From the IMG/VR virus record IMGVR_UViG_3300044843_001063: a stretch of DNA of 64,000 nucleotides, one strand, 5' to 3'. Of this stretch, positions 8,516 through 29,839 are shown piece by piece. The notes under the pieces were generated by a model. That model did not search any database. It saw nothing but the letters and a program-made list of their open reading frames with translations, and was not told the origin of the DNA. The stretch comes from an uncultured virus (IMG/VR IMGVR_UViG_3300044843_001063). Taxonomy: Duplodnaviria > Heunggongvirae > Uroviricota > Caudoviricetes. The first letter of the stretch is position 1. Every line of letters starts with the position of its first letter. The position numbers and the translations under genes are program-made.

Positions 8516-8565
8516 AAATAGTAGAGGGTAATCTGTTAGAGGCTACTGAACAATATATTGCTCAT
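8509..8565 (+). pseudogene. 5' remnant of a macro-domain gene
   Basis: MLEIVEGNLLEATEQYIAH is a typical macro-domain N-terminus; it is cut at TCAT by an IS left end. Confidence 0.6.
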
Positions 8566-8605
8566 GATCTTTAGGCAAGGACACCCTCAGCCTTGTGCTG
8601 AGGGA
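8566..8605 (+). mobile_element. isolated IS200/IS605-family left end (scar)
   Basis: 39/40 nt identical to 14024-14063, including hairpin CCCTCAGC-CTTGT-GCTGAGGG, and preceded by the same TCAT target. Confidence 0.9.
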
Positions 8606-9002
8606 CCAACGACATCGAGAAGATGGTCCAGCAGAAGAATTCTCCAATGGATACAAATATTGGTGGCTCAATGGACGATTACATCGAGAAAATGGCCCAG
8701 CAATCGAAGAAGGCCCAGATAAACACTGGTTTATTCAAGGCATTCGGCATCGAATAGGCGCCCCAGCCATTGAAGAAAATGGAGATAAAGAATGGTGTAT
8801 AGAAGGAAAGCGACACCGAGAAGATGGTCCGGCCATAGAGCGAGCTAATGGAGATAAAGAGTGGTATCTTCGTGGTCAACGACATCGAGAAGATGGTCCG
8901 GCAGTAGAATATGTTGATGGAAGAAAATATTGGTACCTTCAAGGCACAGCATATACAGAAAAAGACTATTGGAGAGTGGTTAAATTAAAAGCATTATGGT
9001 AA
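8606..9002 (+). pseudogene. 5'-truncated HREDGPA-repeat gene
   Basis: Begins mid-repeat right after the IS end; lacks the MQEIK start; ends KLKALW. Confidence 0.75.
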
Positions 9003-9006
9003 TAGT

Positions 9007-9324
9007 ATGAAAGAAATTAAAATAGATGAAGATGGAACTAAAAGATATTATTGGAACGGTCGATACCATCGAGAAGATGGACCGGCCATAGAATTTGTTA
9101 ATGGGGATAAACAATGGTATCTTCATGGTCAATGGCATCGAGAAGATGGCCCAGCGATAGAGCATTCTGATGGATATAAACATTGGTATCTTCATGGTGA
9201 ACGACATCGAGAAGATGGTCCGGCAGTAGAATATCCTTATGAAAGAAAATCTTGGTATCTTCAAGGTAAATCATATTCAGAAGAAGAATACTGGAGAGTG
9301 GTTAAATTAAAAGCATTATGGTGA
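9007..9324 (+). CDS. HREDGPA-repeat protein
   Basis: 3 repeats, KLKALW. Confidence 0.85.
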   Translation: MKEIKIDEDGTKRYYWNGRYHREDGPAIEFVNGDKQWYLHGQWHREDGPAIEHSDGYKHWYLHGERHREDGPAVEYPYERKSWYLQGKSYSEEEYWRVVKLKALW

Positions 9325-9327
9325 AGT

Positions 9328-9639
9328 ATGCAAGAAATTATAGCAGACGAATTTGGTAAATATTACTATTGGAATGGGGAATTTCATCGAGAAGATGGTC
9401 CAGCGATAGAATATATTGATGGTTCTAAAGAATATTGGATTCATGGCAAAATTCATAAAAATAATGGACCCGCGATAGAGCATCAGGCGGATAAATATTG
9501 GTATCAACATCATCATCGTCATCGAGAAGATGGTCCGGCGGTAGAATATGCTGATGGAAGTAAAAAGTGGTACCTTCAAGGTAAAGAATATTCAGAGGAC
9601 GAATACTGGAGAATCGTTAAGCTCAAAGCTTTATGGTAA
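9328..9639 (+). CDS. HREDGPA-repeat protein
   Basis: 3 repeats, KLKALW. Confidence 0.85.
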   Translation: MQEIIADEFGKYYYWNGEFHREDGPAIEYIDGSKEYWIHGKIHKNNGPAIEHQADKYWYQHHHRHREDGPAVEYADGSKKWYLQGKEYSEDEYWRIVKLKALW

Positions 9640-9643
9640 TAGT

Positions 9644-10030
9644 ATGCAAGAAATTAAAATAGATCAACGTGGAACTAAAGAATATTATTGGAATGACCAA
9701 CTCCATCGAGAAGATGGACCAGCTATCGAATGGTATGATGGAGATAAATTTTGGTATTTTCATAATCAACGACATCGAGAAGATGGTCCGGCTGTAGAGC
9801 ATGTTAATGGAGATAAAGAATGGTTTCTTCGTGGTAAATTACATCGAGAAGATGGTCCGGCCATAGATTGGGTTAATGGATTTAAACAGTGGTATCTTCA
9901 TGGTAATCTTCATCGAGAAGATGGTCCAGCAGTAGAAAATGCTCGTGGCGATAAATATTGGTACCTTCAAGGCAAACAATACACAGAAGGAGAATATTGG
10001 CGAATGCTTAAATTAAAAGCTTTGTGGTAA
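9644..10030 (+). CDS. HREDGPA-repeat protein
   Basis: Start reassigned to MQEIK at 9644; 4 repeats, KLKALW. Confidence 0.85.
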   Translation: MQEIKIDQRGTKEYYWNDQLHREDGPAIEWYDGDKFWYFHNQRHREDGPAVEHVNGDKEWFLRGKLHREDGPAIDWVNGFKQWYLHGNLHREDGPAVENARGDKYWYLQGKQYTEGEYWRMLKLKALW

Positions 10031-10034
10031 ACTT

Positions 10035-10490
10035 ATGCAAGAATTAAAAATAGATCAAGAGGGAAATAAGTTTTATTACTATAATGGCCAGTTCCATCGA
10101 GAAGATGGTCCAGCGATAGAACGGACTAATGGAGATAAAGAATATTATCGTTATGGGGTTCTTCATCGAGAAGATGACCCAGCCATAGAATATGTTGATG
10201 GAAGTAAAGAATATTGGGTTAATGGCCGATTACATCGAGACGCTGGCCCTGCTACAGATTATCCTAATGGACATAAATTCTGGTATCTTCATGGTCAACG
10301 TCATCGAGAAGATGGTCCAGCAGTAGAATATACTGATGGAAGCAAATGGTGGTATCTTAATGGTAAATTACATCGAGAAGATGGCCCTGCGAAAGAATTT
10401 TCTAATGGAGATAAATTCTGGTATCTTCAAGGCAAAAACTATTCAGAAGAAGAATATTGGCGTTTAGTTAAGTTGAAAGCTTTGTGGTAA
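10035..10490 (+). CDS. HREDGPA-repeat protein
   Basis: 5 repeats, KLKALW. Confidence 0.85.
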   Translation: MQELKIDQEGNKFYYYNGQFHREDGPAIERTNGDKEYYRYGVLHREDDPAIEYVDGSKEYWVNGRLHRDAGPATDYPNGHKFWYLHGQRHREDGPAVEYTDGSKWWYLNGKLHREDGPAKEFSNGDKFWYLQGKNYSEEEYWRLVKLKALW

Positions 10491-10511
10491 TTTTTAAAAA
10501 TACAGCTCCCC

Positions 10512-10539
10512 TTGCGTCCAATTTATTAAATATTACATT
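10512..10539 (+). promoter_or_regulatory. sigma70-like promoter
   Basis: TTGCGT-N16-TACATT. Confidence 0.45.
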
Positions 10540-10580
10540 GAGTCTTGGAGACCGGGAACCCAAATAAAAAGGAAAAAATT

Positions 10581-11042
10581 ATGAATTCATTAGACAATGA
10601 AGTGAGAAGTGTAATTACTGAATTTATGTCGCAGGACAAATTATTTACTGCTTTAGATGTCAGCAAAAAAGTTAAATTAACCTGTCCTTTTGCTCGACAT
10701 TCTGAAGTTAGAGAATTGGTTCGTCAAATGTTTAAGACTGACATTGTGCCATTACATTGGAATCGCACTTTAATTTCAGTGACCTTAGCTGATGGAACTG
10801 TAACTGATACTTTTTTGTATCATCCAGTGCCAGCTCCAGCTAATGTAGCGGATGTTTACCAACAAGCTTCAATAAACGTTACGCCATACGCCGATCCTTC
10901 TGGACAATTATCATTATTTGCTAATACCGTTGCCTCTTCTTCTACTCCGGTTGCACCGACTCCGGTTACACCGACTCCAGTCTCAGCAAAAGATAGATGG
11001 GCAGATTTATTTAATTCCGCATCTTTGTTTCCTGGAAAATAA
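10581..11042 (+). CDS. hypothetical protein with Pro/Thr-rich linker
   Basis: Start MNSLDNEV after AAGGA; TPVAPTPVTPTPVS. Confidence 0.65.
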   Translation: MNSLDNEVRSVITEFMSQDKLFTALDVSKKVKLTCPFARHSEVRELVRQMFKTDIVPLHWNRTLISVTLADGTVTDTFLYHPVPAPANVADVYQQASINVTPYADPSGQLSLFANTVASSSTPVAPTPVTPTPVSAKDRWADLFNSASLFPGK

Positions 11043-11428
11043 TGCAAGAAATTAAGATAGATTCATTTGGCTCTAAAAGATATTATTGGAATGGTCAGCT
11101 ACATCGAGAAGATGGTCCGGCAATAGAATATACTAATGGATATAAACAATGGTGTTTTCATGGAGACATCCATCGAGAAAATGGGCCAGCTATAGAGTGG
11201 GCTAATGGAGATAAAGAATGGTATTTTCATGGCAAATTACATCGAGAAGACGGTCCAGCAATAGAATATACTACTGGTGGTAAAATTTGGTATCTTCATG
11301 GTCAAAAACATAGAATAGCTGGTCCAGCCAGATTATTTCCTAATGGACATAAAGAATGGTGGCTTCAAAATAAACAATATTCAGAGAAAGAATATTGGAG
11401 AGTAGTTAAGTTGAAATACTTATGGTAA
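11042..11428 (+). CDS. HREDGPA-repeat protein
   Basis: 4 repeats, KLKYLW. Confidence 0.85.
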   Translation: MQEIKIDSFGSKRYYWNGQLHREDGPAIEYTNGYKQWCFHGDIHRENGPAIEWANGDKEWYFHGKLHREDGPAIEYTTGGKIWYLHGQKHRIAGPARLFPNGHKEWWLQNKQYSEKEYWRVVKLKYLW

Positions 11429-11432
11429 AGTT

Positions 11433-11843
11433 ATGCAAGAAATTAAAATAGATAACTGGGGTATTAAAAGATATTATTTAAATAATCAGCTTCATCGAAC
11501 AGATGGTCCAGCGGTAGAATATGATAAGTCTGGAGAAGGAGAATGGTATCTCAATGGAGAGCGCCATCGAGAAGATGGTCCGGCGGTAGAATATGCTACT
11601 GGATCTAAATATTGGTTTCGTCATGATAAATTACATCGAGAAGATGGTCCTGCCGTAGAATCTGCTTATGGAGATAAAGAATGGTATTATCATGGTAAAC
11701 TTCATCGAGAAGATGGTCCAGCGATAGAATATGGTGTTAATTCAATTAAAGGATCTGCTGGAACTAAAGAATATTATCTTAACGGTCTGAAATATTCAGA
11801 AGAAGAATATTGCCGTGTTTTTAAGTTAAAAGCTTTATGGTAA
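11433..11843 (+). CDS. HREDGPA-repeat protein
   Basis: 4 repeats, KLKALW. Confidence 0.85.
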   Translation: MQEIKIDNWGIKRYYLNNQLHRTDGPAVEYDKSGEGEWYLNGERHREDGPAVEYATGSKYWFRHDKLHREDGPAVESAYGDKEWYYHGKLHREDGPAIEYGVNSIKGSAGTKEYYLNGLKYSEEEYCRVFKLKALW

Positions 11844-11846
11844 AAT

Positions 11847-12158
11847 ATGCAAGAAATTAAAGAAGATATATATGGAAAATATTATTATTGGAATGGTCTG
11901 CTCCATCGAGAAGATGGGCCAGCAGTAGAATATACTAATGGATATAAACAATGGTATCTTCATGGTCAACGTCATCGAGAAGACGGTCCGGCCATAGAAT
12001 ATGATGATGTCAAATGGTGGTACTATCATGGTAACCTACATCGAGAAAATGGCCCGGCGGTAGAATATGCTGATGGAAGTAAACAATGGTTTCTTCAAGG
12101 TAAAAACTATTCAGAAGAAGAATATTGGAGAGTTGTTAAATTAAAAGCTTTATGGTAA
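11847..12158 (+). CDS. HREDGPA-repeat protein
   Basis: 3 repeats, KLKALW. Confidence 0.85.
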   Translation: MQEIKEDIYGKYYYWNGLLHREDGPAVEYTNGYKQWYLHGQRHREDGPAIEYDDVKWWYYHGNLHRENGPAVEYADGSKQWFLQGKNYSEEEYWRVVKLKALW

Positions 12159-12162
12159 AGTA

Positions 12163-12411
12163 ATGCAAGAAATTAAAATAGATGAACGTGGAACTAAAAG
12201 ATATTGTTGGAATGGTAAGTTGCATCGAGTAGGTAGTCCTGCGATAGAATGGTCTAATGGTAATGAAGAATGGTGGTTTAATGGTCAGCGACATCGAGCA
12301 GATGGACCAGCCATAGAATATGCTGGTGGAAGTAAAAAGTTTTATCTTCAAGATAAACACTATTTAGAGGAAGAATATTGGCGAATTGTTAAATTAAAAG
12401 CTTTATGGTAA
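12163..12411 (+). CDS. HREDGPA-repeat protein
   Basis: 2 repeats, KLKALW. Confidence 0.85.
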   Translation: MQEIKIDERGTKRYCWNGKLHRVGSPAIEWSNGNEEWWFNGQRHRADGPAIEYAGGSKKFYLQDKHYLEEEYWRIVKLKALW

Positions 12412-12846: not shown

Positions 12847-13471
12847 GCATAATAATGTAAAAATATTCAATAATTTACAAGAATTTTGGGATTATTTTGA
12901 ATTTTGCCCCATTTGTCAACAAAATAATCGCCACATCTATCAAATCGGGTTTTTACCACCTTATGTGGCTAAAGAAACATTCACTAAACAATCCGAAATA
13001 TTACATATTGCCGCAGTATTTAGTATTAATCAACATGCTTACTCAGGTACTTTACAATTAAATTGTCAAAATAATACCTTTAACTTTTCATTAAAAGAAT
13101 TTATCTTCTTAACGAATGCTAAATTTAAAAACATTTTATCTTGTTATTTAAAAGCGGATTGTTTTCATTGTAACTGTAGTTACATTCATGGCCTTATTCA
13201 GTTAAATCTATTAACTCAAACCATTTCCAATTTTGATATTGTGCGTGAAGTAGTTCATTTACTTGATTATGAAGATAAATTTAATATTCAATTAAAGTTT
13301 AAAGACAATGAAATGCAGATATCACAATATACTTCACTTAATATTGGTGAAAATAATCAACCATTGTTAGTTGATGATAATCAAGTGATGACTCTACCTC
13401 TGGTTCCTTTAGATTTTACCAATATTCCAAAAGTTATTTCTCGATTAAAAACTATGATGCTGTTATTTTAG
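12845..13471 (+). CDS. hypothetical protein with CxxC pairs
   Basis: CPIC..CFHC; layout resembles 47504-48070; start uncertain. Confidence 0.6.
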   Translation: MHNNVKIFNNLQEFWDYFEFCPICQQNNRHIYQIGFLPPYVAKETFTKQSEILHIAAVFSINQHAYSGTLQLNCQNNTFNFSLKEFIFLTNAKFKNILSCYLKADCFHCNCSYIHGLIQLNLLTQTISNFDIVREVVHLLDYEDKFNIQLKFKDNEMQISQYTSLNIGENNQPLLVDDNQVMTLPLVPLDFTNIPKVISRLKTMMLLF

Positions 13472-13533
13472 CCGCATGCAATAACCCTGCCAACCGCCCG
13501 CGCTCCCAGCGACTAAATTTTTTTACGCGGACC

Positions 13534-13562
13534 TTGACATACCGCTAAGGTGGGATTATATT
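13534..13562 (+). promoter_or_regulatory. sigma70-type promoter
   Basis: TTGACA-N17-TATATT with upstream T-tract. Confidence 0.7.
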
Positions 13563-13594
13563 TTAACCGTGTCAACAAGCAGAAGACAGAGCAG

Positions 13595-13806
13595 CAATGG
13601 AAGCTGGAATCCTTAAATATCCAGACTATGTCTCCATGGTCTAATGGAAGGGCAGCGGGCTTCTAATCCGCTTTATGTAGGTTCGAGTCCTACTGGAGAT
13701 GCCAAGTGATAATTATCCCTAACAATGGAAGCTAGAATCCTTAAATATCTAGACGAGCAACCCTCTGTGGGCTGCAATGGAAGCTGGAATCCTTAAATAT
13801 CCAGAC
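13595..13806 (+). repeat. 32-nt hairpin repeat, 3 copies (13595, 13723, 13775)
   Basis: CAATGGAAGCT(G/A)GAATCCTTAAATATC(C/T)AGAC. Confidence 0.95.
13630..13704 (+). tRNA. tRNA-Arg(TCT)
   Basis: Acceptor GTCTCCA/TGGAGAT; anticodon arm GCGGG-CTTCTAA-TCCGC; T-loop GTTCGAGTC; encoded CCA. Confidence 0.92.
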
Positions 13807-14023
13807 TACGTAGGAACTTTATGATTAAATTAATTTACGACCAGGCAGTTGCCAAACTAAGTAACCAAAAAGATAATTTAGATCAATTAATTAAAGAAAC
13901 TACAGGATCCGAAATTGGCAATTTTATCCAAAGGGTGTTGAGTTGGTATCATGATGAAACTAAGAAACAGTTCCTTTGGGAAATATTTAATAAAGTCTTT
14001 GATTTAAGTCCTGTTTTGTTCAT

Positions 14024-15295
14024 GATTTTTAGGCAAGGACACCCTCAGCCTTGTGCTGAGGGAGGAATTGCCTCTCCTTTCTGCTATCTAAATAATTTTT
14101 TCTTTTACACAAAACTTCCTATATTTATAGGATATATCACTACATATGAGGTTAAATAGAACGGTCAAATTAAAACTTGATGTCAAGGCAGAAGAAATTC
14201 TACCTTCACTTCAGGCGTATACTGCTGCTTTTAATCTTGTCTGTCAAGTAGGTTACAAGAACAAAATAACTAATTCTATTAAACTGCATAAATTAACCTA
14301 CCAAGATTGTCGAACTAACTTTAATTTACCGTCTCAATTAGCTATTTCTGCTAGAACTAAAGCCACTGAAGCTTTAAAAGCCATTAAGAGTAAAAATAAG
14401 TATAGTAAATGTCCACAGTCAAAGTTAGCTGCTATTCGACTAGATTGTAATAGCTACTCTATCGCTAAATCTGGAGTTGTATCTATTCTGACTCTTGCTG
14501 GCAGAAAGAAAATTAAACTAGATATTCCTAGATATTATCAGCATTACTTTACTGATTGGAAATATACTAGTGCTGACCTTCTGATTAAGAAGAATACTGT
14601 CTATTTGCATATCTCTTTTGAGAAAGAAAGAGAAGACGTAAAATCAAACGGTAAGTTTTTAGGAATAGATCGAGGTATCAAAAAGTTAGCCGTTACTTCA
14701 GATAATAAGTTTTATTGCGGAAGTAAATTAAAGTCAATATGTAATAAATATAAAGCATTAAGAAGAAAATTACAGCAAAGTGGTAGTCAATCTGCTAAAA
14801 GACATCTTAAATACCTTTCAGGTAAAGAAAAACGGTTTAAGGCAGACATTAACCATCAGATTAGCAAACAGATTATTAATAGTTTAAATCCAGGCGACAC
14901 TCTAGTATTAGAAAAATTAACTGGTATTAGAAGATTACGTATGAGAAAACCTCAGAGATCAGCCTTGAATAGTTGGAATTATTATCAACTAGAGCAGTTC
15001 CTAATTTATAAAGGTCAGGCAAAAGGCATACAAGTAGTCCATGTTAATCCTGCTTATACGAGTCAACAGTGCAGCAAATGCAATTATGTTGATAAGAAAA
15101 ACAGGAAGACTCAAACTAACTTTTGTTGTCAAGGATGTGAATTTAAACTAAATGCAGACTTAAATGCTAGTAGAAATATTAGCAGACGAGCATTAGATGA
15201 CTATATGTTGTTTAATGGGGCTGAAGTCAATCAGCCTATGGTAGGAGCAGCGAAGCTACTTACAAGCCACCAGCCTTGTGCTGGTGGTAATTGAC
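14024..15295 (+). mobile_element. non-autonomous IS200/IS605-family (IS1341-like) element
   Basis: Inserted 3' of TCAT; LE hairpin 14042-14062; RE hairpin CCACCAGC-CTTGT-GCTGGTGG then TTGAC; no target duplication; no tnpA. Confidence 0.9.
14146..15294 (+). CDS. tnpB: RNA-guided endonuclease TnpB
   Basis: RuvC GIDRG / VLEKL / NADLNA; zinc finger YTSQQCSKC..CQGC. Confidence 0.92.
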   Translation: MRLNRTVKLKLDVKAEEILPSLQAYTAAFNLVCQVGYKNKITNSIKLHKLTYQDCRTNFNLPSQLAISARTKATEALKAIKSKNKYSKCPQSKLAAIRLDCNSYSIAKSGVVSILTLAGRKKIKLDIPRYYQHYFTDWKYTSADLLIKKNTVYLHISFEKEREDVKSNGKFLGIDRGIKKLAVTSDNKFYCGSKLKSICNKYKALRRKLQQSGSQSAKRHLKYLSGKEKRFKADINHQISKQIINSLNPGDTLVLEKLTGIRRLRMRKPQRSALNSWNYYQLEQFLIYKGQAKGIQVVHVNPAYTSQQCSKCNYVDKKNRKTQTNFCCQGCEFKLNADLNASRNISRRALDDYMLFNGAEVNQPMVGAAKLLTSHQPCAGGN

Positions 15296-15591
15296 GGATA
15301 CTTTTCATGGTTTTGTGGTAAATTGTTTATTGGATGATTCTGCTTTTCGAGTAGAATATCGTAAGCTGTTTATAGACGAAAACTATGATTTGGTTTGGGA
15401 AAATAATGAACACAAAACGGTTCTTTCATCTAAAGATGACCCAGACTCAGATCCGGTTGTCATTTGGGATAATGATGGAACTCAAAAAGTATCTTTATTG
15501 ATGGAAGCGATGGATCATGCTGAATTGCGCCATCTGCGAAGGCAGCAACAGAACGAAAAAATAAAGGAAATGTTTAGCGAAATTCGCGGCA

Positions 15592-15850
15592 GCTCCTAGC
15601 AACTAAATTTTTTTTCTGCGCACTTAAGTACATCAATGGAAGCTGGAATCCTTAAATATTCAGACGTAGCGGCAGCAATGAAAGCTGGAATAGTTAAATA
15701 TCCAAACAATATCCAGATGCAAAATCCGTGCCAAGGGGTGCGTCGCTGCTCCCAGCGACTAAATTTTTTTCTGCGTACCTAAGCACAGACGATCGGTATC
15801 TCCGTGTGGCATAGGTAGCGATGGAAGCTAGAATCCTTAAATATCTAGAC
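15592..15850 (+). repeat. second cluster of the 32-nt repeat (15634, 15676 degenerate, 15819) plus GCTCC(C/T)AGC(G/A)ACTAAATTTTTTT repeat (15592, 15748; also 13502)
   Basis: Direct sequence comparison. Confidence 0.9.
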
Positions 15851-15882
15851 AATGTCTAGAAAAAACAATAGAAAGGGCCTAC

Positions 15883-16179
15883 ATGCCACGACCAACATCA
15901 ATTACCCCAGAGGATTTAGCGAGATGGGATAAATTAATAGAAGAAGAATTAGATACTAACTTATCTAGTAATTTACTGTTTCGAGAAGTTTGTTATGCCG
16001 GACAATGGTTAGCAGAACAATTGCATCAATTGAATTGTTCCGATGAAATGATTGTCAGAATTATTTTTACCGCCGGCCGACTCTCCTTTGGAAGAGATCC
16101 TTGGGAAATTTCAACAATGTTATTAACAGGTTATCAAAATAATGAACTTAAATACGAAGACCCTAAATTAATTAATTAA
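15883..16179 (+). CDS. hypothetical protein
   Basis: 98-aa ORF with SD-like AAGGG. Confidence 0.65.
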   Translation: MPRPTSITPEDLARWDKLIEEELDTNLSSNLLFREVCYAGQWLAEQLHQLNCSDEMIVRIIFTAGRLSFGRDPWEISTMLLTGYQNNELKYEDPKLIN

Positions 16180-16242
16180 TTAATTAGCAATTCTAAAAAT
16201 TATATTTTATAAGTAAATGGTTATTTATAAAATTTGTAAGTA

Positions 16243-16270
16243 TTGACACGACATTTTTAATGTTTACATT
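16243..16270 (+). promoter_or_regulatory. sigma70-type promoter
   Basis: TTGACA-N16-TACATT. Confidence 0.6.
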
Positions 16271-16304
16271 AAGTAAAATTCAAAATATTGGAGATTGACG
16301 CAAC

Positions 16305-17438
16305 ATGGCAAAGAAAAAGCAAGATGAACAGGTAATGGCTACTTCGGACTTCAACCTAGAGAAGTTGAGCACCAAAGATTTATCAACCCACATCGCTTCG
16401 ACTATTAAGGTTGGAGGAAATGTGGCGATCTTTGGCCGCAGAGGTACTGGTAAGACTGAAATCTCGAAACAAGAGATTAAGAAAGCCGAGGCTGCCGAGG
16501 TATACATTAACCTTTCCGTGATGGAACGAGTAGATTTGGGAGGATATCCCAATATCATGGGAGGTTCCTCGCAAAGGAAGTTTGTCGACTTCTTACTGCC
16601 GCAGTTCTATGAGCAGATGATTTCTGGTGATAAACCAGTGGTTGCTCTTCTAGACGAAGTGGATAAGGCAGACCCCAGTCTGTGGGCGCCGTTACTAGAG
16701 TTTACTCAGTTCCATTCGATCAATGGTCAGAAACTCAATAACCTACAAGCCGTTATCATGACTGGTAACTTAATTTCTGAAGGTGGTATGCGTCCCAGTC
16801 TACCTCTCTTAGATAGAGCAGAGAAGTATCTAGTAGAAGCGGATGCTAACTCTTGGTTAGAGTGGGCTGGTAAGTCGGGACGGATTCATCCATCTATTAC
16901 GGCCTATATTACGGATCATCCGAAGGACCTATTTGGCGCAGTTGATCCAGAGGATCGTTATGCAGATCCTTCACCCCGAGGTTGGGCAGGAGCTTCTGAA
17001 ATGCTCTTCAAGGGCGAAGAATTAGGTTGGGGAACAGACCTTCTGAATAAGAAGGTGTGTGGGCGTGTAGGTAAAGATGCTGGTATTAAGTACAGCAATT
17101 ATTATGAGCACTACCAGCAGTTATTGCCGATGGTCGATAAGATCTATCGCAACGAAGATGTGAGTCATGAGTATCGTGGTTTGGAGCCCACCAAGAAGCT
17201 GGTCATTTGTATGATTGTGTGTGCACGACTGGCATCTCTCCTTGACCAAGGTGCAAATAAGGCGAGTAAGGCAGCGATTACTCACGTAGGTAATTTTTTG
17301 AATAACGTGAGTCCAGAGTTATTATTGATTTCGGTGAGAAGTCAGATTCAATTGGAGCGGGTGATGAAACATAAGATGGATGACCACCCTGCTTGGGAAC
17401 CATTCTTGGCCAAGTTGAATGCTTCGTTGAAGTCCTGA
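16305..17438 (+). CDS. MoxR-like AAA+ ATPase
   Basis: Walker A GRRGTGKT; Walker B LLDEVDKA; MTGN; PSPRGW. Confidence 0.88.
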   Translation: MAKKKQDEQVMATSDFNLEKLSTKDLSTHIASTIKVGGNVAIFGRRGTGKTEISKQEIKKAEAAEVYINLSVMERVDLGGYPNIMGGSSQRKFVDFLLPQFYEQMISGDKPVVALLDEVDKADPSLWAPLLEFTQFHSINGQKLNNLQAVIMTGNLISEGGMRPSLPLLDRAEKYLVEADANSWLEWAGKSGRIHPSITAYITDHPKDLFGAVDPEDRYADPSPRGWAGASEMLFKGEELGWGTDLLNKKVCGRVGKDAGIKYSNYYEHYQQLLPMVDKIYRNEDVSHEYRGLEPTKKLVICMIVCARLASLLDQGANKASKAAITHVGNFLNNVSPELLLISVRSQIQLERVMKHKMDDHPAWEPFLAKLNASLKS

Positions 17439-21865: not shown

Positions 21866-22724
21866 AAAACTATCTTATGCTATTACTGACAAAAATATTA
21901 CCGTTAACTATGATGGTCAGACACATATTGTCTCTCGATCAGAAGATCCAACCTTAGCAGAACAGCTATTACAAGCTTTACGAGAAAATCGACAGGATGA
22001 GATTCCAGATCTAATCAGTGCCGCTACTCGCATTGAATCTTATGGGCAAGGAGACTTTAAAGTAGTAAATGGTGAAGTCCATATCAATGGTCAACCTGTT
22101 CATAGTTCGTTAGCTAAGAAAATTCTAGATTTTCATAGCGACAAACTACCTCATTTACCTTTAGTTAATTTTGCTAAAAATTTACAAAGAAATCCTTCTT
22201 TTCGTGCAGTTAATGAATTGTTTAATTTTCTAGATAAAAATGACCATCCCATTACTGAAGATGGCAAATTTATTGCTTATAAAAAGGTTCGACCCGATTT
22301 TAAAGATATCCACTCTGGAACCTTTGACAACTCTCCTGGGCAAGTTGTCTCCATGCCTCGTAACCAAGTAGATGAGGACCCTACTCGCACTTGTAGTGCT
22401 GGCTTGCATGTAGCTAACTGGACTTATGCTCATGATCATTTTGGGTCTCCTTCTGATGTCATGTTAGAAGTAGAAGTGGATCCGGCCGATGTCGTCTCCG
22501 TCCCGGTTGACTATGATAGCTCTAAAATGAGAGTCTGCCAGTATACAGTGTTAGGTGTGGTAGATCGCCAGCATTCATCCAACGATCGTCTTCGTTCTAA
22601 TAGTTCAACATTTTCTTCTAGTCATGAAGAAGATGACTTCAAAGATGAAGAAGATGATTTTGAAGATGAATATGGAGATTATGACGATGATGATTATAAC
22701 GACTTTTATTATACGCAAGGCTGA
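21858..22724 (+). CDS. rIIB: rIIB-like protein
   Basis: NPSFRAVNELFNFL, ITEDGKFIAYKKV, MPRNQVD..TCSAGLH, VDPADVVSVP; acidic tail. Confidence 0.88.
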   Translation: MNKKLSYAITDKNITVNYDGQTHIVSRSEDPTLAEQLLQALRENRQDEIPDLISAATRIESYGQGDFKVVNGEVHINGQPVHSSLAKKILDFHSDKLPHLPLVNFAKNLQRNPSFRAVNELFNFLDKNDHPITEDGKFIAYKKVRPDFKDIHSGTFDNSPGQVVSMPRNQVDEDPTRTCSAGLHVANWTYAHDHFGSPSDVMLEVEVDPADVVSVPVDYDSSKMRVCQYTVLGVVDRQHSSNDRLRSNSSTFSSSHEEDDFKDEEDDFEDEYGDYDDDDYNDFYYTQG

Positions 22725-22728
22725 TTAA

Positions 22729-23337
22729 TTATTGCCACTGTTTGTTCTTCACAATTCGGTGTATTTGCGTGCTCGATACACCGAATTGCCGGGATAACTG
22801 ACTTAAACTATAATTACCTGTAGCATATAATTGGCGTATTTGATCTATTTGTTGGTCAGTTAATTTTCGACGGCAACTTAATAATGCCGCCTTCACATGA
22901 GCTTTCATCTTATTGCCAAAATTGCCATTAGCAGCCCCATATAAGCGCTTTCCATACATTGGATTACCTGGACCTGCATGTAAGTGAGATAGTTTTAATT
23001 TTTGTGCAGTGGAACAGGGCCGGCCTATTTGGCCTTCTCCTCCGGCCGTTTGATTATACAATTGATAGCGATTCAAGATTAATTCGGCAATCCAGTTTAT
23101 TTCGGCTTGACAGGCATCTTCCCAAGAATTAAATTCTTCAACCACCTTAAAAGTAAAGTTATTAACTCCATATTTAGCAAGAGCTTGATGGATAGGATAT
23201 TTTTTATTTTTTAGAGATTGTGATTGATGACGCTTCCATCGTTTAGCCGGATGACGAGTAATGCCGACATACATTTTATGAGTAATGTGATTAAAGATTA
23301 AATATAGAAAGCAAGCGACAGGCAAAGATGGTGGCAT
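22729..23337 (-). CDS. GIY-YIG homing endonuclease (NUMOD3-like region + HTH)
   Basis: FLYLIFN..MYVGIT..RWKRH..YNQTAGGEG, NPMYGK; start ATG 23337. Confidence 0.85.
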   Translation of the reverse strand: MPPSLPVACFLYLIFNHITHKMYVGITRHPAKRWKRHQSQSLKNKKYPIHQALAKYGVNNFTFKVVEEFNSWEDACQAEINWIAELILNRYQLYNQTAGGEGQIGRPCSTAQKLKLSHLHAGPGNPMYGKRLYGAANGNFGNKMKAHVKAALLSCRRKLTDQQIDQIRQLYATGNYSLSQLSRQFGVSSTQIHRIVKNKQWQ

Positions 23338-23376
23338 GGCGCAGATATATATCGTCAAGAATAAAGGGACATAACA

Positions 23377-24519
23377 ATGAACAATAATATTGCAGTGTTG
23401 GGGGCTCAGAGCGGAGATGAAGGTAAGGGCCATATCGTGCACTACCTCGCCCCCAACTACTCCTGGATCATTCGCTACAACGGTGGAGCCAACGCTGGTC
23501 ATACCATCTACCGAGATGGTAAAAAATATGTACATAACTTATTGCCTTCTATTGATTTTCGAGCTGCTCGCTCTAAAGCTTATTTAGGGTCGGGTATGGT
23601 AATTGATTTAGAGAAGCTACTAGAAGAAGTAGTTATTGCTGAGCAAGATTTTCCGGGTGCTGCTAGTAAAATTTATGTAGATAAGAACGCTTTTATTGTT
23701 ACTAATCAGCACAAATTAGAGGATAAAGCCAATAATGCTCATATTGGATCTACTAATCGTGGAATTGGTCCGGCATATACTGATAAAATTGGTAGAAAAG
23801 GTACTAGAATAACTGATTTGCTCTCTGTCAAAGAGAATGAATACTCCGCTTTATTAGATAAGCTCAAATCGTTAGGAGTAAAATTTACTTCTTTGTTAGA
23901 AGTAAAATCAGAAATGTTAGATGTCTCGCTTCTATTTGAAGGCGCCCAGGGTGTGTTATTAGATATTAACCAAGGAATTTATCCTTATGTTAGCTCTAGT
24001 GATTGTACTCTGGGGGGCATTTATGCAAATGGTTTTGCATTTGCTGCGCCTAAAACTATTTATGGGGTAGCTAAATGCTATGCCACCAAAGTGGGTGAAG
24101 GGCCCTTTCCTTCCGAAATTTTTGGCCAAGAAGCCGCCAGACTGCGGGAATTAGGCAAAGAATATGGAGCGACGACCGGCAGACCTCGTAGAATTGGCTG
24201 GTTAGATATTCCTGCGTTACAATATGCATGTCAAGTGAGCGGAATTACTCATCTAGTCTTAACTAAATTAGATATTTTAGCCGGAATGGAGCAAGTACCA
24301 GTTGCTATTAAATATCAAACTCCTGTCACGGAAGCCAAAGATTTCTTTTCTGCTTCTCCTATTTACCAGAATTTTCCTGGATGGAATCATTGTAAATTTG
24401 CCAATGATTTTTCTGAAGAGAATTTAAATAAATTTATCAACATGATTAGTACGGCGACAGGGTGTCAGATCTCTTTAGTGTCTTGTGGAACATCTCCTAA
24501 TGATATTTATTGGTTATGA
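23377..24519 (+). CDS. purA: adenylosuccinate synthetase
   Basis: GAQSGDEGKG, GGANAGHT, GIGPAY, EGAQG, EYGATTGRPRRIGWLD, TKLD. Confidence 0.93.
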   Translation: MNNNIAVLGAQSGDEGKGHIVHYLAPNYSWIIRYNGGANAGHTIYRDGKKYVHNLLPSIDFRAARSKAYLGSGMVIDLEKLLEEVVIAEQDFPGAASKIYVDKNAFIVTNQHKLEDKANNAHIGSTNRGIGPAYTDKIGRKGTRITDLLSVKENEYSALLDKLKSLGVKFTSLLEVKSEMLDVSLLFEGAQGVLLDINQGIYPYVSSSDCTLGGIYANGFAFAAPKTIYGVAKCYATKVGEGPFPSEIFGQEAARLRELGKEYGATTGRPRRIGWLDIPALQYACQVSGITHLVLTKLDILAGMEQVPVAIKYQTPVTEAKDFFSASPIYQNFPGWNHCKFANDFSEENLNKFINMISTATGCQISLVSCGTSPNDIYWL

Positions 24520-24520
24520 T

Positions 24521-24715
24521 ATGTTATGGAGCGAATTAAATTATACCGATCAATTAAAAATAATTAATAGAATTCTTGATCTCTGTGATCAAGAAAATAA
24601 TTTAGCCAATAAAATTGGATTATTGGCTGCCGTCAATGAATTAGAAATATGGAGCAATTCTCCATGTTATTCATTTGATGAAATGTGTGTAGTATCGGCC
24701 ACCGATCCAGAATAG
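24521..24715 (+). CDS. hypothetical protein
   Basis: Likely start MLWSELN. Confidence 0.5.
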   Translation: MLWSELNYTDQLKIINRILDLCDQENNLANKIGLLAAVNELEIWSNSPCYSFDEMCVVSATDPE

Positions 24716-24722
24716 GAAAGTT

Positions 24723-25832
24723 ATGAGTCATTCAGTTATTGACACTATAGTTAAGCAAAGTCCTCATTTAAATTGGATAGATAATGGAACTTGTTTATTA
24801 GTTCGACATGGCTCTCATGCGTATGGAACTAATACTGAATCTTCGGATGAAGATTTCAAAGGGATTACTATTCCTCCTTCGAGATATTTTCTAGGATACT
24901 TACAACGTTTTGAGCAGGCAGAATTAAAAGATCCAGATGCGGTTATTTATGATATTAGGAAGTTTTTCCACTTAGCAGCGGATTGTAATCCCAATATTAT
25001 TGAAGTTTTACATACGGATCCGGCCGACCATTGTATTGTCTCTCCGATTGGAGAGATAATTTTGGATCATAAAAATGATTTTTTATCTAAAAAGGCTAAA
25101 CATACATTTAGTGGTTATGCTATTAGTCAATTACACCGAATCCAATCTCATAAAAGATGGATTATGAATCCGCCTCAGGCACCTCCAACCAGAAAAGAGT
25201 TAGGTTTACCGGAGCAAACTTTGATTCCGGCGGATCAATTAGCGGCGGCCGAAGCGGCAGTAAAAAAAGAATTAGATGCTATGTCTTTTGATTTTATGGA
25301 TTCCTTGCAAGATTCTACTAAAATTGAAATTAAAAATGCTATGGCTAAATATTTATCGGAGCTGAAAATAACGGCTGATGAGCAATTTGCAGCTATGGCT
25401 CGAAAAATAGGATTTAATGATAATTTTATTGAAGTTATGGTGCAAGAGAGAAAATATTCTCAATTAAAGAGAGAGTTTGATCAATATCAAAGTTGGAAGC
25501 AAAATCGTAATCGTAAACGATTCGAATTAGAAGAAAAATTTGGTTATGATTGCAAACATGCGTATCATTTGGTAAGATTGCTGCGTATGTGTAAAGAAAT
25601 GCTCTTAACAGGAAAAGTAATTGTTAAGCGACCAGATCGAGAAGAGCTATTAGCCATTCGCAATGGAGCATGGACTTATGATCAATTAATTGAGTATGCT
25701 AAAACAGAAGAAAAATCACTAGATGAGTTGTATTTACCTACGCAGGTTTTGCCTAAAACTCCTAATCAAATAAAATTAGACGAATTATGTGTCGATTTAG
25801 TTGAAAAACATTTCTTTTATGCAAGAAATTAA
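24723..25832 (+). CDS. Pol-beta superfamily nucleotidyltransferase (RlaP/YcgL-like)
   Basis: GSHAYGTNTESSDEDFKG, NPNIIEVL, GYA, YDCKHAYHLVRL. Confidence 0.85.
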   Translation: MSHSVIDTIVKQSPHLNWIDNGTCLLVRHGSHAYGTNTESSDEDFKGITIPPSRYFLGYLQRFEQAELKDPDAVIYDIRKFFHLAADCNPNIIEVLHTDPADHCIVSPIGEIILDHKNDFLSKKAKHTFSGYAISQLHRIQSHKRWIMNPPQAPPTRKELGLPEQTLIPADQLAAAEAAVKKELDAMSFDFMDSLQDSTKIEIKNAMAKYLSELKITADEQFAAMARKIGFNDNFIEVMVQERKYSQLKREFDQYQSWKQNRNRKRFELEEKFGYDCKHAYHLVRLLRMCKEMLLTGKVIVKRPDREELLAIRNGAWTYDQLIEYAKTEEKSLDELYLPTQVLPKTPNQIKLDELCVDLVEKHFFYARN

Positions 25833-26205
25833 GATAGATGAATTTGGTAATAAAGAATATTATTTGAATGGCCAACTGCATAGAGAAGATGGGCCAGCGA
25901 TAGAATTTGTTAATGGAGATAAAGAGTGGTATCTTCACGGTCTTCTCCATCGAGAAGATGGACCAGCAATAGAATATCCTAATGGATATAAAGCATGGTA
26001 TCGTCATGATCAACGGCATCGAGAAGGTGGTTGCGCAGTAGAATATGCTAATGGAGATAAAGAGTGGTGGCTTTATAATCAACTACATCGAGAAGATGGA
26101 CCTGCCGTAGAATGGGCTAACGGCTATAAAGTGTGGTGTCTTCAAGACAAAGAATATACCGAAGAAGAGTATTGGCGAGTAGTTAAGCTAAAAGCTTTAT
26201 GGTAA
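25819..26205 (+). CDS. HREDGPA-repeat protein
   Basis: MQEIK start, 4 repeats, KLKALW. Confidence 0.85.
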   Translation: MQEIKIDEFGNKEYYLNGQLHREDGPAIEFVNGDKEWYLHGLLHREDGPAIEYPNGYKAWYRHDQRHREGGCAVEYANGDKEWWLYNQLHREDGPAVEWANGYKVWCLQDKEYTEEEYWRVVKLKALW

Positions 26206-26209
26206 AGTT

Positions 26210-26665
26210 ATGCAGGAAATTATCATAGATAAATATGACAATAAAGAATATTTTTGGAATGGTCGTTTACATCGAGAAAGCGGACCTGCCGTAGAGCGGT
26301 TTGATGGAACTAAATATTGGTACTTTCATGGTCAACGACATCGAGAAGATGGCCCGGCAGTAGAAGATGCTAGTGGCACTAATGCATGGTGGATTTATGG
26401 TCAACTCCATCGAGAAGATGGACCAGCTATAGAATATGATAGCGGATCTAAAGAATGGTGGCTTCATGGTCAACAACATCGAGTTGATGGTCCGGCCATA
26501 GAATTTGCTGATGGAACTAAATATTGGTATTGTCATCAACAATTACATCGAGCGGATGGTCCAGCCATAGAATGGTCTAATGGACATAAAGAGTGGTATC
26601 TTCAAGGCAAACAATATACAGAAGAAGAATATTATCGAATGCTTAAATTACAGGCTTTATGGTGA
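26210..26665 (+). CDS. HREDGPA-repeat protein
   Basis: 5 repeats, KLQALW. Confidence 0.85.
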   Translation: MQEIIIDKYDNKEYFWNGRLHRESGPAVERFDGTKYWYFHGQRHREDGPAVEDASGTNAWWIYGQLHREDGPAIEYDSGSKEWWLHGQQHRVDGPAIEFADGTKYWYCHQQLHRADGPAIEWSNGHKEWYLQGKQYTEEEYYRMLKLQALW

Positions 26666-27339
26666 ATAAATCTATTCAAATCAAGACCACTAAAAATGGA
26701 GATGTAAAATATTATTTTCATAGCCAGCTCCATCGGGAAGATGGTCCGGCAGTTGAGTGGTCTAATGGTGATAAATCCTGGTACCGTTATGGCAAAAAAC
26801 ACCGACTAGATGGGCCTGCTGTCCAGACTATTTATGGAGATAATGAGTGGTGGTTTCGCGGCATACTTCATCGTGTTGATGGGCCCGCTATAAAGTACAG
26901 TAATGGATTTAAAGAGTGGTACCTTCATGGTCAGCGACATCGAGAAGATGGTCCCGCGGTAGAATATGTTGATGGAAGTAAATCATGGTGGATTCATGGC
27001 CTTCGACACCGAGAAGATGGTCCGGCAATAGAGTATACTAATGGCAGTCAATTATGGTATTATAATAATAATTTACATCGAGAAGATGGTCCAGCCCTAA
27101 AAAATACTAATGGAGATAAAAAGTGGTATCTTCATGGAAGTTTGCATCGAGAAAACGGTCCCGCCATAGAATGGTTTGATGGAGCTAAAGAATGGTGGAT
27201 TAACGATCAGAGACATAGAGAAGATGGTCCGGCCATTGAATCATTAAATTTTAATAAATGGTATCTTTATAATCAAAAAATAAACGTCTCTTCTCAACAA
27301 GAATTTGACAGGTTTTTTAAATTAAAAGCTTTATGGTAA
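26659..27339 (+). CDS. HREDGPA-repeat protein
   Basis: 8 repeats, KLKALW. Confidence 0.85.
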   Translation: MVNKSIQIKTTKNGDVKYYFHSQLHREDGPAVEWSNGDKSWYRYGKKHRLDGPAVQTIYGDNEWWFRGILHRVDGPAIKYSNGFKEWYLHGQRHREDGPAVEYVDGSKSWWIHGLRHREDGPAIEYTNGSQLWYYNNNLHREDGPALKNTNGDKKWYLHGSLHRENGPAIEWFDGAKEWWINDQRHREDGPAIESLNFNKWYLYNQKINVSSQQEFDRFFKLKALW

Positions 27340-27343
27340 AGAT

Positions 27344-27727
27344 ATGCAAGAAATTAAGATAGATGAATATGGCACTAAAAGATATTATTGGAATGGTCAA
27401 CTACATCGAGAAGATGGCCCAGCAGTAGAATTTATTAATGGCGATGAAGAGTGGTACCTTCATGGTCAGCGACATCGAGAAGATGGTCCGGCCTTAGAAT
27501 ATATTGATGGAAGTAAATCATGGTGGTTTCATGGCCAACGACATCGAGAAGGTGGTCCGGCCATAGAATATCGTAATGGAGAGAAATCGTGGTTTTTTCA
27601 TGGCCACAGACATCGAGAAGATGGCCCGGCCGTAGAATGGACCTATATTAATCACTATTATTTGCAAAGTAAAAAATATGCAGAAGAAGAGTATTGGCGC
27701 TTAGTTAAATTAAAAGCTTTATGGTAA
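27344..27727 (+). CDS. HREDGPA-repeat protein
   Basis: 4 repeats, KLKALW. Confidence 0.85.
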   Translation: MQEIKIDEYGTKRYYWNGQLHREDGPAVEFINGDEEWYLHGQRHREDGPALEYIDGSKSWWFHGQRHREGGPAIEYRNGEKSWFFHGHRHREDGPAVEWTYINHYYLQSKKYAEEEYWRLVKLKALW

Positions 27728-27731
27728 AGTA

Positions 27732-28118
27732 ATGCAAGAAATTAAGACAGATCAGCATAGAACTAAATACTACTATTGGAATAGTCTATTACACCGAGAA
27801 GATGGTCCAGCTATAGAAAGAGTAAATGGTAATAACGAATGGTATCTTCATGGATACCGGCATCGAAAAGACGGTCCAGCCTTTATTTCTGGAAAAATAC
27901 AAAAATATTGGCTCAATGGCAAATTACATCGAGAAGATGGCCCCGCAGTTATTTATTATGAAGAATTTACGGAGTGGTATTATCAAGGGCTTAAGCATCG
28001 TATTAATGGTCCGGCGGTAGAATATAGTGATGGATTTAAGAGATTTTATTTGAATGGTAAAATAATAGAATCGGAAGAAGAATATTGGCGGTTAGTTAAG
28101 TTAAAAGCTTTCTGGTAA
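27732..28118 (+). CDS. HREDGPA-repeat protein
   Basis: 4 repeats, KLKAFW. Confidence 0.85.
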   Translation: MQEIKTDQHRTKYYYWNSLLHREDGPAIERVNGNNEWYLHGYRHRKDGPAFISGKIQKYWLNGKLHREDGPAVIYYEEFTEWYYQGLKHRINGPAVEYSDGFKRFYLNGKIIESEEEYWRLVKLKAFW

Positions 28119-28122
28119 AGTA

Positions 28123-28440
28123 ATGCAAGAAATTAAAAAAAATCAAATGGGCGCCACAGTATCTTACTATAATAATCTTCTCCATCGAGAAGATGGTCCA
28201 GCAGTAGAATATCCTTCTGGCCATAAAGAATGGTGGAATCATGATCGATTGCATCGGGAAGATGGACCTGCCATAGAATTTGCTCATGGAACTAAAGTGT
28301 GGTATTTTCATGGAAAATTACATCGAGAAGATGGTCCGGCTTTAGAAAGTGAAAATGGTACTAAAAAATGGTATCTTTATAATAAAGAATATACAGAAGA
28401 AGAATATTGGAGAGTAGTTAAATTGAAAGCTTTGTGGTAA
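28123..28440 (+). CDS. HREDGPA-repeat protein
   Basis: 3 repeats, KLKALW. Confidence 0.85.
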   Translation: MQEIKKNQMGATVSYYNNLLHREDGPAVEYPSGHKEWWNHDRLHREDGPAIEFAHGTKVWYFHGKLHREDGPALESENGTKKWYLYNKEYTEEEYWRVVKLKALW

Positions 28441-28443
28441 AGT

Positions 28444-28584
28444 ATGCAAAAGATCATACTGATTACATCGAGAAGATGGCCCGGCTTTATCAAGAAATGA
28501 TGGCCACAAAGAATGGTACTTTCAAGGTAAAAAATATTCAAAACAAGAATATCAGAGAGCAATCAAACTTCAAATTTTGTTATA
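28444..28584 (+). pseudogene. collapsed, frameshifted HREDGPA gene
   Basis: ATGCAAAAG start, then out-of-frame LHREDGPA..KEWYFQGKKYSKQEYQRAIKLQILL. Confidence 0.65.
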
Positions 28585-28588
28585 AACA

Positions 28589-29104
28589 CTAATAATATTT
28601 ATGTTTAGACTTGACTTTAGCTTTATCGGTATTTTCTACATATTGTTTATTTTTTCCTTCTTGTTTTTTCTTTTTATCTGTCGCCTCTCTTTCTGCAGGC
28701 GTTAAAGATTCCCATTTTTCTTCTGGTAAATATCTTCCAACATAATTAGTATCATCTACTTTAGCCTTATCTTTCTTTTTAAAATCAGATAAATACATCC
28801 ACTTTTGTTTGGTCCATTTTTTCATTTTATTATTTTTAGCTGTTGGTTTTTTACCTTTAAATCCGCCACCTCGTTGTTTGTATAATTTAAGAGCCAGTTG
28901 CATAGCTCTAGCGGAATGCTTACCTCCCATACGAGACTTAGCTTCACTTTTACACCGACTCCACAGTTCTGGATTTGTTTTTACTGCTATACCAGCAGGT
29001 TTTTTAGCTTTAGAGGCTTCTTTAACTAAAGTTAAGTATTTTTCTTCTAAATATTCTGCAACAACATATAAATAGTTAAGCGGATCAATTAAATCATTTA
29101 TCAT
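28589..29104 (-). CDS. basic phage protein, DUF5872-like
   Basis: NPELW..K..GGKHSARAMQLA..YKQRGGGF..KWTKQKW..RYLP..W..LT. Confidence 0.65.
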   Translation of the reverse strand: MINDLIDPLNYLYVVAEYLEEKYLTLVKEASKAKKPAGIAVKTNPELWSRCKSEAKSRMGGKHSARAMQLALKLYKQRGGGFKGKKPTAKNNKMKKWTKQKWMYLSDFKKKDKAKVDDTNYVGRYLPEEKWESLTPAEREATDKKKKQEGKNKQYVENTDKAKVKSKHKYY

Positions 29105-29127
29105 ATCTATAATAGCAAAATATTATT

Positions 29128-29373: not shown

Positions 29374-29377
29374 AATT

Positions 29378-29836: not shown

Positions 29837-29839
29837 AGT

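Follow-up and report, generated by a model that had tools for sequence, protein, structure and literature searches.

We analyzed a 64,000-nucleotide (nt) stretch of DNA from an uncultured virus of the Caudoviricetes (IMG/VR record IMGVR_UViG_3300044843_001063; this whole stretch is hereafter the window), in which six copies of a short non-coding repeat between positions 13591 and 15850 surround a tRNA gene and one protein-coding gene. We conclude with high confidence that each copy is a type V-M CRISPR repeat, the kind used by the effector Cas12m: repeats of like architecture form arrays directly behind cas12m genes in related phages. The window locus itself is not a canonical CRISPR locus, having neither an adjacent cas12m gene nor regular spacers; it is a known repeat family in an undescribed arrangement. 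We further propose, with the evidence about evenly balanced, that the phage lineage has copied the repeat from its own cas12m locus into its transcription units, where the copies would serve as cis-acting handles by which Cas12m would cut, cap, or gate the phage's own tRNA and mRNA transcripts.

Identity and fold of the repeat

A sequence-only reading of the window had listed 32-nt copies starting at 13595, 13723, 13775, 15634, 15676 (degenerate), and 15819. All six positions hold: allowing up to three mismatches, a 21-nt core pattern matched six times in the window, whereas shuffled sequence gave 0.03 on average and 1 at most. The unit itself is 36 nt, not 32, and has an unconserved 5-nt head. 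The pattern analysis bore out the both-sided stem change from CTGGA/TCCAG to CTAGA/TCTAG in copies 2 and 6; as described, copy 4 has a single G-U pair, and five copies have the same 11-nt loop.

The repeat is identified by its occurrence in arrays beside cas12m. Our metagenome scan returned 18 stretches, two of which are CRISPR arrays (L399 and L403; these two, L391, and L386 were viewed as loci of 2–3 kb). The L403 array has five intact repeats with spacers of 37, 5, 38, 36, and 31 nt and lies directly behind a cas12m gene, the open reading frame (ORF) directly upstream matching solved Cas12m proteins (23vw, E 2.9e-39; 8hio, E 1.8e-14). The L399 array has 18 repeats, with only the zinc-finger end of the gene in view. 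A like repeat also forms an array in G006, a 406-kb phage record (95% complete) that encodes a Cas12m of 598 amino acids (aa; E 1.1e-47). Over 31 nt, the intact window copies are identical to the L403 repeat at 26–29 positions, to the L399 repeat at 22–25, and to the G006 repeat at 20–22. The closest repeat found is thus phage-borne: L403 is a sister phage, whose two downstream genes match G001, a 128-kb related contig, at 61–63%. Repeats in bacterial bins with Cas12m are alike at 22–23 of 31 nt (L418), and a genome scan of 185,579 species (2 stretches) gave no closer host repeat. The spacers of the L403 array (L403:1505-1795) are 46–71% GC in a locus of 37% GC, which hints at a GC-rich host or competitor.

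In all, 13 Cas12m homologues were found, and the D-E-D triad is kept when ten of them are aligned with L403. Scanning viral contigs with a single Cas12m protein gave no match; scanning with the alignment gave nine viral and two bacterial-bin loci. Behind the cas12m gene, 8 of these 11 loci have an array of like architecture, one has a single repeat, and two have none. No cas1 was found in any of the five cas12m records tested (5/5).

The build of the repeat agrees with published Cas12m RNAs. The GoCas12m CRISPR RNA (crRNA; PMC11013384, Table S5) has the same register and end bases as the window repeat, that register being a 5-nt leader strand, a 2-nt link, a 5-nt strand, 1 nt, a 5-nt strand, a 5-nt loop, a 5-nt strand, and a 2-nt end (PMC11013384). 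In Cas12m RNA, a 36-nt scaffold contains a pseudoknot and a stem; the 5′ end is disordered, and the guide spans 17 bp. The protein reads, among other features, a terminal C, an A that is flipped out, and a closing G-A pair (PMC10442227); we placed these protein-read positions on the window repeat by register, not by model. As expected of type V-M, in which the unit is 36–37 nt, the window repeat has 36 nt and ends in the two conserved bases after the pseudoknot helix. Cas12m uses no tracrRNA and cuts within the repeat in a protein- and Mg-dependent manner; it does not cleave DNA even with its D-E-D triad and silences by DNA binding (PMC11013384). Processing of pre-crRNA by MsCas12m requires the protein (PMC11013384), and the active site for processing was not found according to PMC11013384 and PMC10442227. 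Binding and processing are shown for these orthologues, and we extend them to the window repeat by analogy.

The fold is larger than the hairpin first described. By itself, the hairpin is no stabler than shuffled sequence (z −0.25, −0.26, and +0.60 for three intact copies), which suggested that the whole structure extends further. A fuzzy search of viral-contig loci turned up a variant whose 5′ leader had changed in step with the first half of the presumed loop, and we conclude from this joint change that the repeat forms an H-type pseudoknot. The loop is thus conserved, as had been stated, but not free: five of its bases pair with the 5′ leader. The leader helix joins columns 7–11 with 20–24, and the stem of the sequence-only reading joins columns 14–18 with 30–34. 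Our alignment, A2, has 19 distinct rows (15 lone copies and 4 array repeats). Degenerate copy 5 is not in it, nor are 10 solitary metagenome matches, whose helices are imperfect; the L368 group (six near-identical viral loci, also present in the metagenome scan) and L469 (Crocosphaera), which matched the pattern once each, are absent from it and, like those 10, from all counts. Across the 19 rows, 91.1% of cells are paired and four pairs have changed on both sides. None of 500 shuffles reaches the pairing or the covariation score, a control that related sequences may exceed without structure and that is to be set against the proposal accordingly; slid controls pair at 14–46%. The leader helix is 82% paired, with two both-sided pairs and one constant mismatch (in 17 of 19 rows), while the second helix is 100% paired, also with two both-sided pairs; pair 11:20 is A-U in 15 rows, C-G in 3, and U-A in 1. 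Support independent of the shuffle test comes from the published Cas12m structure.

The sequence-only reading had named a lack of covariation in additional copies as evidence against itself; copies from relatives do covary, in both helices. Among the 15 non-array copies, columns 1–5 are unconserved (4–11 of 15) and columns 6–36 are kept (10–15 of 15), which fits the disordered 5′ end and bound scaffold of Cas12m RNA. The unpaired columns 12, 13, 35, and 36 are kept in 14, 15, 15, and 12 of 15 copies. Over 651 kb, a covariance model added no credible copy to the known ones; its next best match scored 17.6 bits (E 0.018). What had been called a selected RNA hairpin of unrecognized kind is thus a selected structured RNA, but one that can be recognized: a Cas12m CRISPR repeat with a pseudoknot. 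Looser searches were discarded. A loop-fixed pattern in bacterial genomes gave 78 stretches, none with 5/5 stem pairs and five with 4/5, which we took as chance; loose viral patterns gave 99 and 37 stretches, mostly chance coding matches, and another at least 122 stretches.

Placement of the copies in the locus and in related phages

All features of the locus lie on the plus strand. The sequence-only reading placed the copies downstream of a sigma70 promoter, and this stands for the first cluster only: a sigma70-like site (13534..13562), defined by a consensus match of 11/12 alone, lies ~29 nt upstream of repeat 1 and is the best of 16 such sites in 13300-16400 (shuffles gave 11.4). Repeat 1 (13591..13626; 36 nt, pseudoknot intact, 27/31 nt identical to the L403 array repeat) ends 3 nt before tRNA-Arg(TCT) (13630..13704, CCA encoded), as had been claimed, and the tRNA occupies the place of spacer 1. 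Repeat 2 (13719..13754; 29/31 nt identical to the L403 array repeat) starts 14 nt past the tRNA 3′ end. Repeat 3 (13771..13806) has the ribosome-binding site and ATG of the next gene in its guide position, the ATG being 14 nt downstream. The second cluster comprises repeat 4 (15630..15665, one G-U pair), degenerate repeat 5 (15672..15707), and repeat 6 (15815..15850), 32 nt downstream of which is the next ATG, that of a 98-aa gene (15883..16179). Both helices of repeat 5 are damaged, and it scores 25 bits in the covariance model, from whose training set it was kept out, against 53–58 for the others. The spacing is irregular, as described: gaps are 96, 20, 1827, 10, and 111 nt between the 32-mers, or 92, 16, 1823, 6, and 107 nt between the 36-mers, not regular unique spacers of ~30–40 nt. 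Five of the six copies have another within ~100 bp and are clustered rather than strictly solitary.

The gene that follows repeat 3 (13821..15599) is interrupted by an IS200/IS605 insertion sequence (IS; ~14024..15295, with tnpB at 14146-15294), whose ends we placed by means of loose contig ends and of a copy, 92% identical, that a related contig carries. Removing the IS in silico restores the single 168-aa frame that had been predicted; no contig in the four runs examined has the IS-free form. Neither half of the gene has a Pfam or PHROG match, and the C-terminal half has no longer homologue. The TnpB element is a passenger, not the cognate effector. An isolated 48-bp copy of the left IS end lies at window 8558-8605, and both IS ends occur without tnpB at G001 33211-32941, as in a miniature inverted-repeat transposable element.

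A second, unrelated dispersed repeat, D2, was absent from the earlier reading and precedes every Cas12m-repeat cluster in the window. Repeat comparison placed its first copy at 13502..13534; a variant at 15592..15624 overlaps the stop codon of the 168-aa gene, and a third copy (15748..15780) scores as a terminator-like hairpin with a T run. D2 has an invariant 12-nt core, a T-rich run, and then, ~10 nt later, a short conserved word. G001 has 24 copies, all on the plus strand, 17 of them in a mostly non-coding 5-kb stretch (22093-27108) and the rest at seven further sites, one directly after the CCA of a tRNA-Leu. There is none in G006, and no Rfam match in the G001 stretches scanned. D2 may serve as a terminator, as a protein site, or as a promoter element of the phage.

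The Cas12m-type copies are likewise spread through related phages. Our viral-contig scan returned 17 stretches, of which 11 are true copies in four contigs and 6 a chance coding match, and related phage contigs contain ten further lone copies, three of them between tRNAs. G001 has seven copies; G003 and G004 have one each. Seven loose contig ends at repeat sites (four lake runs) equal the G001 flanks, indicating that G001 is the same phage or a co-occurring sibling, and one further loose contig end carries a copy absent from every contig. L391, a contig with the same name prefix as L403, is syntenic with the window at 64–73% and has a lone copy after its von Willebrand factor A (vWA) gene, where the window has none. 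All 16 clade copies (16/16) are intergenic, and the next long ORF is on the same strand in 14 of 16; the other two share the strand of a tRNA cluster. Three copies in G001 interleave six tRNAs. An ORF starts 9–15 nt downstream of 6 of the 17 non-array copies (one of them from G006), against 1.8–3.5% for intergenic positions. In these six leaders, the ribosome-binding site falls in the guide position, and EF-Ts is among the genes. A sigma70-like site lies within 30 nt before 4 of the 17. At G001 123024-123223 (L430:3024-3223), a divergent promoter region has one repeat per strand, each of which puts a ribosome-binding site in guide position, one for EF-Ts and one for a Kelch-repeat gene. Elsewhere in G001 (L426:15943-16018), a tRNA with a CTA anticodon (called Pyl by ARAGORN) is a possible amber suppressor and adjoins one that was called as Cys and has an ACA anticodon.

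The window comes from a large phage. Its genes include rIIA/rIIB, a MoxR-type ATPase with a vWA partner, PARP, polynucleotide kinase, RNA ligase, Thg1, FtsK, and tmRNA, and 31 of its 121 naive ORFs are common to G006 at a median identity of 39%. Parts of it are present in 24 lake or freshwater DNA runs, 10 of which contain half or more of its words; the sequencing-run search listed no RNA run containing it. Among GenBank phages, there was no match to the Cas12m homologue at 1e-20 or to the vWA protein at 1e-30, and the repeat cluster gave only tRNA-length matches among the best 30 of 321. Other features of the window include an RNA repair and translation kit at 24723-45754 and 45848-46203 (RlaP, Pnkp, a T4-like RNA ligase, Thg1, and tmRNA) and a large tandem family of short paralogous proteins with a repeated motif (8595-12411 and 25801-30160, with dozens more in G001), one scanned member of which gave only a sub-threshold DUF6745 match. 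A 421-aa ORF (59063-60328) has no Pfam, NCBIfam, or PHROG match, a 24% homologue in G006, and a non-significant match (E 3.6) to the Cas12m profile at its zinc-finger end.

Proposed function and rival explanations

Under the cis-handle proposal, the copies would be transcribed, as suggested by their being all intergenic, co-oriented, and often promoter-proximal. As covariation and homology to solved Cas12m RNAs show, the last 30–31 nt form the pseudoknot gripped by Cas12m, which, if it acts as its orthologues do, would bind it and cut within the repeat, 5′ of the scaffold. A long phage RNA would in this way be split into units that each start with a protein-bound pseudoknot. A cut in repeat 2 would free the 3′ side of tRNA-Arg with a short trailer, leaving repeat 1 as a leader for host trimming. 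At repeat 3, the ribosome-binding site and start codon would lie in the 17-nt guide channel, and bound Cas12m should gate translation or alter stability. Cas12m would thus double as an RNA-processing and regulatory protein of the phage. Processing or protein binding, both among the roles suggested at the outset, is the likely role; the accompanying suggestion of a CsrA sponge is not supported.

Several points weigh against the proposal, besides the shuffle caveat. We found neither a cas12m gene nor a remnant of one in the window, in any of G001, G003, and G004, or in the unique part of G005; together these make up ~240 kb, or roughly half of a genome that may be near 450 kb (from a CheckV completeness of 28% for G001, valid only if the contigs are one genome). 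The only matches to the Cas12m search in the window are its three TnpB genes, which are ordinary IS proteins. At the G001 site syntenic with the cas12m and array of L403, there is one variant repeat behind GroES and a 93-aa ORF, and no cas12m. The cas12m of this phage may have moved, lie in unseen DNA, or have been lost. Because none was found, we put the cis-handle proposal no higher than even and leave weight on decoy and Cas-independent readings; the handles of this lineage may also have outlived the phage's cas12m and be served by the enzyme of another element or by the RNA fold alone. The other 6 of the 12 G001 tRNAs have no adjacent repeat, and Cas12m on repeat 1 would hold the first bases of the tRNA in its guide channel and could hinder maturation rather than help it. 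Finally, the 9–15-nt range of the leader preference was picked after viewing the data and its null counts both strands; at a null of 8%, p = 0.0015.

One alternative is that the repeat RNAs act as an RNA anti-CRISPR, or sponge: they would load a Cas12m (of the host, a competing element, or the phage itself) with useless guides and titrate it, processing being a by-product. Single repeats that follow promoters and have neither a cas gene close by nor targets show the layout of the published RNA anti-CRISPRs (Racrs; PMC10651486), bacterial bins contain Cas12m with similar repeats (L418), and G001 lacks cas12m at the syntenic site. However, the closest repeat is phage-borne (L403, 26–29/31), with no closer host repeat in the species scan; where an element has a cas12m of its own, the copies it contains are of the element's repeat type; and a decoy has no need of tRNA operons and gene leaders. 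We consider this reading rather unlikely. We think it very unlikely that the copies are guides acting in trans, in which the repeat and the next 17–20 nt would direct Cas12m to host or phage promoters by partial pairing. Cas12m does silence by binding DNA without cutting it (PMC11013384), and 10 matched nt suffice for CracrVA1 (10.1101/2024.10.29.618823). However, the "spacers" of the window are visibly a tRNA-Arg, short linkers, and a ribosome-binding site, and in the phage DNA available (about half of the genome) the guides have no target above controls: the best 17-nt matches equal those of shuffled guides, and 5′-anchored matches have a mean length of 9.5 nt in 13 copies (control median, 10) and of 9.9 nt in 26 copies of a second element, G009 (control, 10.1). 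No partial promoter match flanked by a protospacer-adjacent motif (PAM) rose above controls in that phage DNA, a search that leaves host DNA aside.

The copies might instead be independent of Cas proteins, derived from a decayed array and now serving as pseudoknots that shield 5′ ends, as sites cut by a host nuclease or by themselves, or as recent neutral copies. This would agree with the missing cas12m and the decay of copy 5, with positions that differ between sister phages (the L391 copy after the vWA gene), and with the elusive processing site of Cas12m (PMC11013384, PMC10442227). We judge it quite unlikely, as the unpaired bases read by Cas12m are kept (columns 12, 13, 35, and 36), processing by MsCas12m needs the protein, and compensatory changes speak against neutrality. 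The remaining options of the sequence-only reading (a CsrA sponge, a nut/put antiterminator, or an unrelated new ribozyme) drew on a CsrA-like word in five copies and on copies close to promoters and a tRNA; they are scarcely credible now that CRISPR arrays beside cas12m explain the sequence. A CsrA sponge presents an invariant GGA in a loop. Here the word is paired, as the 5′ strand of a helix, and relatives replace it with compensating changes on the opposite strand (pair 11:20), so that a sponge is not supported. Nor are a nut/put element or known ribozymes: a Rfam search of the window gave no family for the repeat at the gathering score or at E up to 10, matching only the tRNA and, elsewhere in the stretch, three chance sites, and no self-cleaving ribozyme or riboswitch model of Rfam 15 matched, Rfam matches overall being only tRNA and tmRNA. 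PreQ1-type and gene-32-type pseudoknots, type III antitoxin RNA, and theta and pistol ribozymes, candidate look-alikes checked by Rfam only, were dropped once arrays beside cas12m had been found.

Other Cas12m elements and known systems

To survey generality, each other element (G008 left out) was searched with its own repeat. G009, a 193-kb record (93% complete, classed as provirus) unrelated to this phage, contains its own repeat 44 times, with 18 copies belonging to the array and 26 dispersed, against 0 for a control pattern; its Cas12m is ApCas12m of PMC11013384, as compared by eye. G011 has seven copies outside its array, several of them inside long ORFs of a GC-rich genome, and G007 and G006 have one each. 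In all four, dispersed copies track the element's own array repeat type. The G009 and G011 copies were selected by pattern, so their intact helices are partly built in. Two G009 array spacers, at 27024 and 28057, match their own record at 20/20 tested nt (37669, minus strand, and 166983), which suggests self-directed silencing by ApCas12m.

Other results of the survey count against extending the proposal. There is no clear dispersed copy in G012 (one doubtful match), G013, or G014, and G010 shows no array. The leader preference is weak or absent in G009 (3/26; null, 3.7%) and G011 (1/7; null, 5.1%), two elements that have no tRNAs, suggesting that the attachment of the handle differs by lineage. 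We offer only tentatively, leaning somewhat toward doubt, the broader view that several phage lineages independently turned Cas12m inward for genome-wide RNA processing and translation control, with a regulon marked by dispersed repeats; in this jumbo phage, tRNA operons would be punctuated and genes such as EF-Ts gated.

The window repeat shares its 36-nt length, stem, and pseudoknot with type V-M (V-U1) Cas12m systems (GoCas12m, 8pm4; MmCas12m2, 8hhl; TfCas12m, 23vw; ApCas12m), and the sister phages resemble known V-M loci in their cas12m-array layout, D-E-D triad, and lack of cas1. The window is unlike such loci: no cas12m is adjacent, spacers are not regular, and the repeats, which recur across the genome, lie beside a tRNA and gene leaders. 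Type V-M occurs on plasmids and in some prophages (review, PMC11656645). The Cas12m of myxophage MV-1 is, like those of the sister phages, phage-borne with an array, a D-E-D triad, no adaptation genes, and no targets found, and the accessible description mentions an array only, without dispersed repeats (10.64898/2026.09.14.751636). In a paper on landfill megaphages, Cas12m appears only as a reference. Racrs, or solitary repeat units, are also phage intergenic repeats near promoters and away from cas genes; those tested belong to types I-C, I-E, I-F, and V-A and mimic host repeats (PMC10651486). Unlike them, this phage has many copies per genome, matching a phage-borne system and placed in tRNA operons and leaders, and the nine supplementary files of PMC10651486 have no V-M or V-U1 entry. 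CRISPR RNA-like RNAs (crlRNAs: CreA, CreR, mini-arrays, Cracr; 10.1101/2023.03.03.530964, 10.1101/2024.10.29.618823) are likewise non-array repeats, used for regulation by a Cas effector, but act in trans through a spacer with a partial promoter match and a PAM, and no such match was found for the window copies in the phage DNA available. In the literature covered (subscription papers in part; bioRxiv supplements could list such copies), we found no report of Cas12m repeats dispersed over a phage genome or around tRNAs, nor of Cas12 repeats within the tRNA operons of phages. Non-array CRISPR repeats are thus known as decoys or as trans-acting guides. If our proposal is true, there would be a third use, in which repeats mark a phage's tRNAs and mRNAs in cis and the phage's Cas12 reads the marks. 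This would add RNA processing and gene control to what type V effectors do, and could account for the retention in phages of a Cas12m that does not cut and whose arrays frequently lack known targets. The copies are natural substrates with compensatory variants for the question of RNA processing by Cas12m, and the element with 26 dispersed copies encodes ApCas12m, which has already been cloned (PMC11013384).

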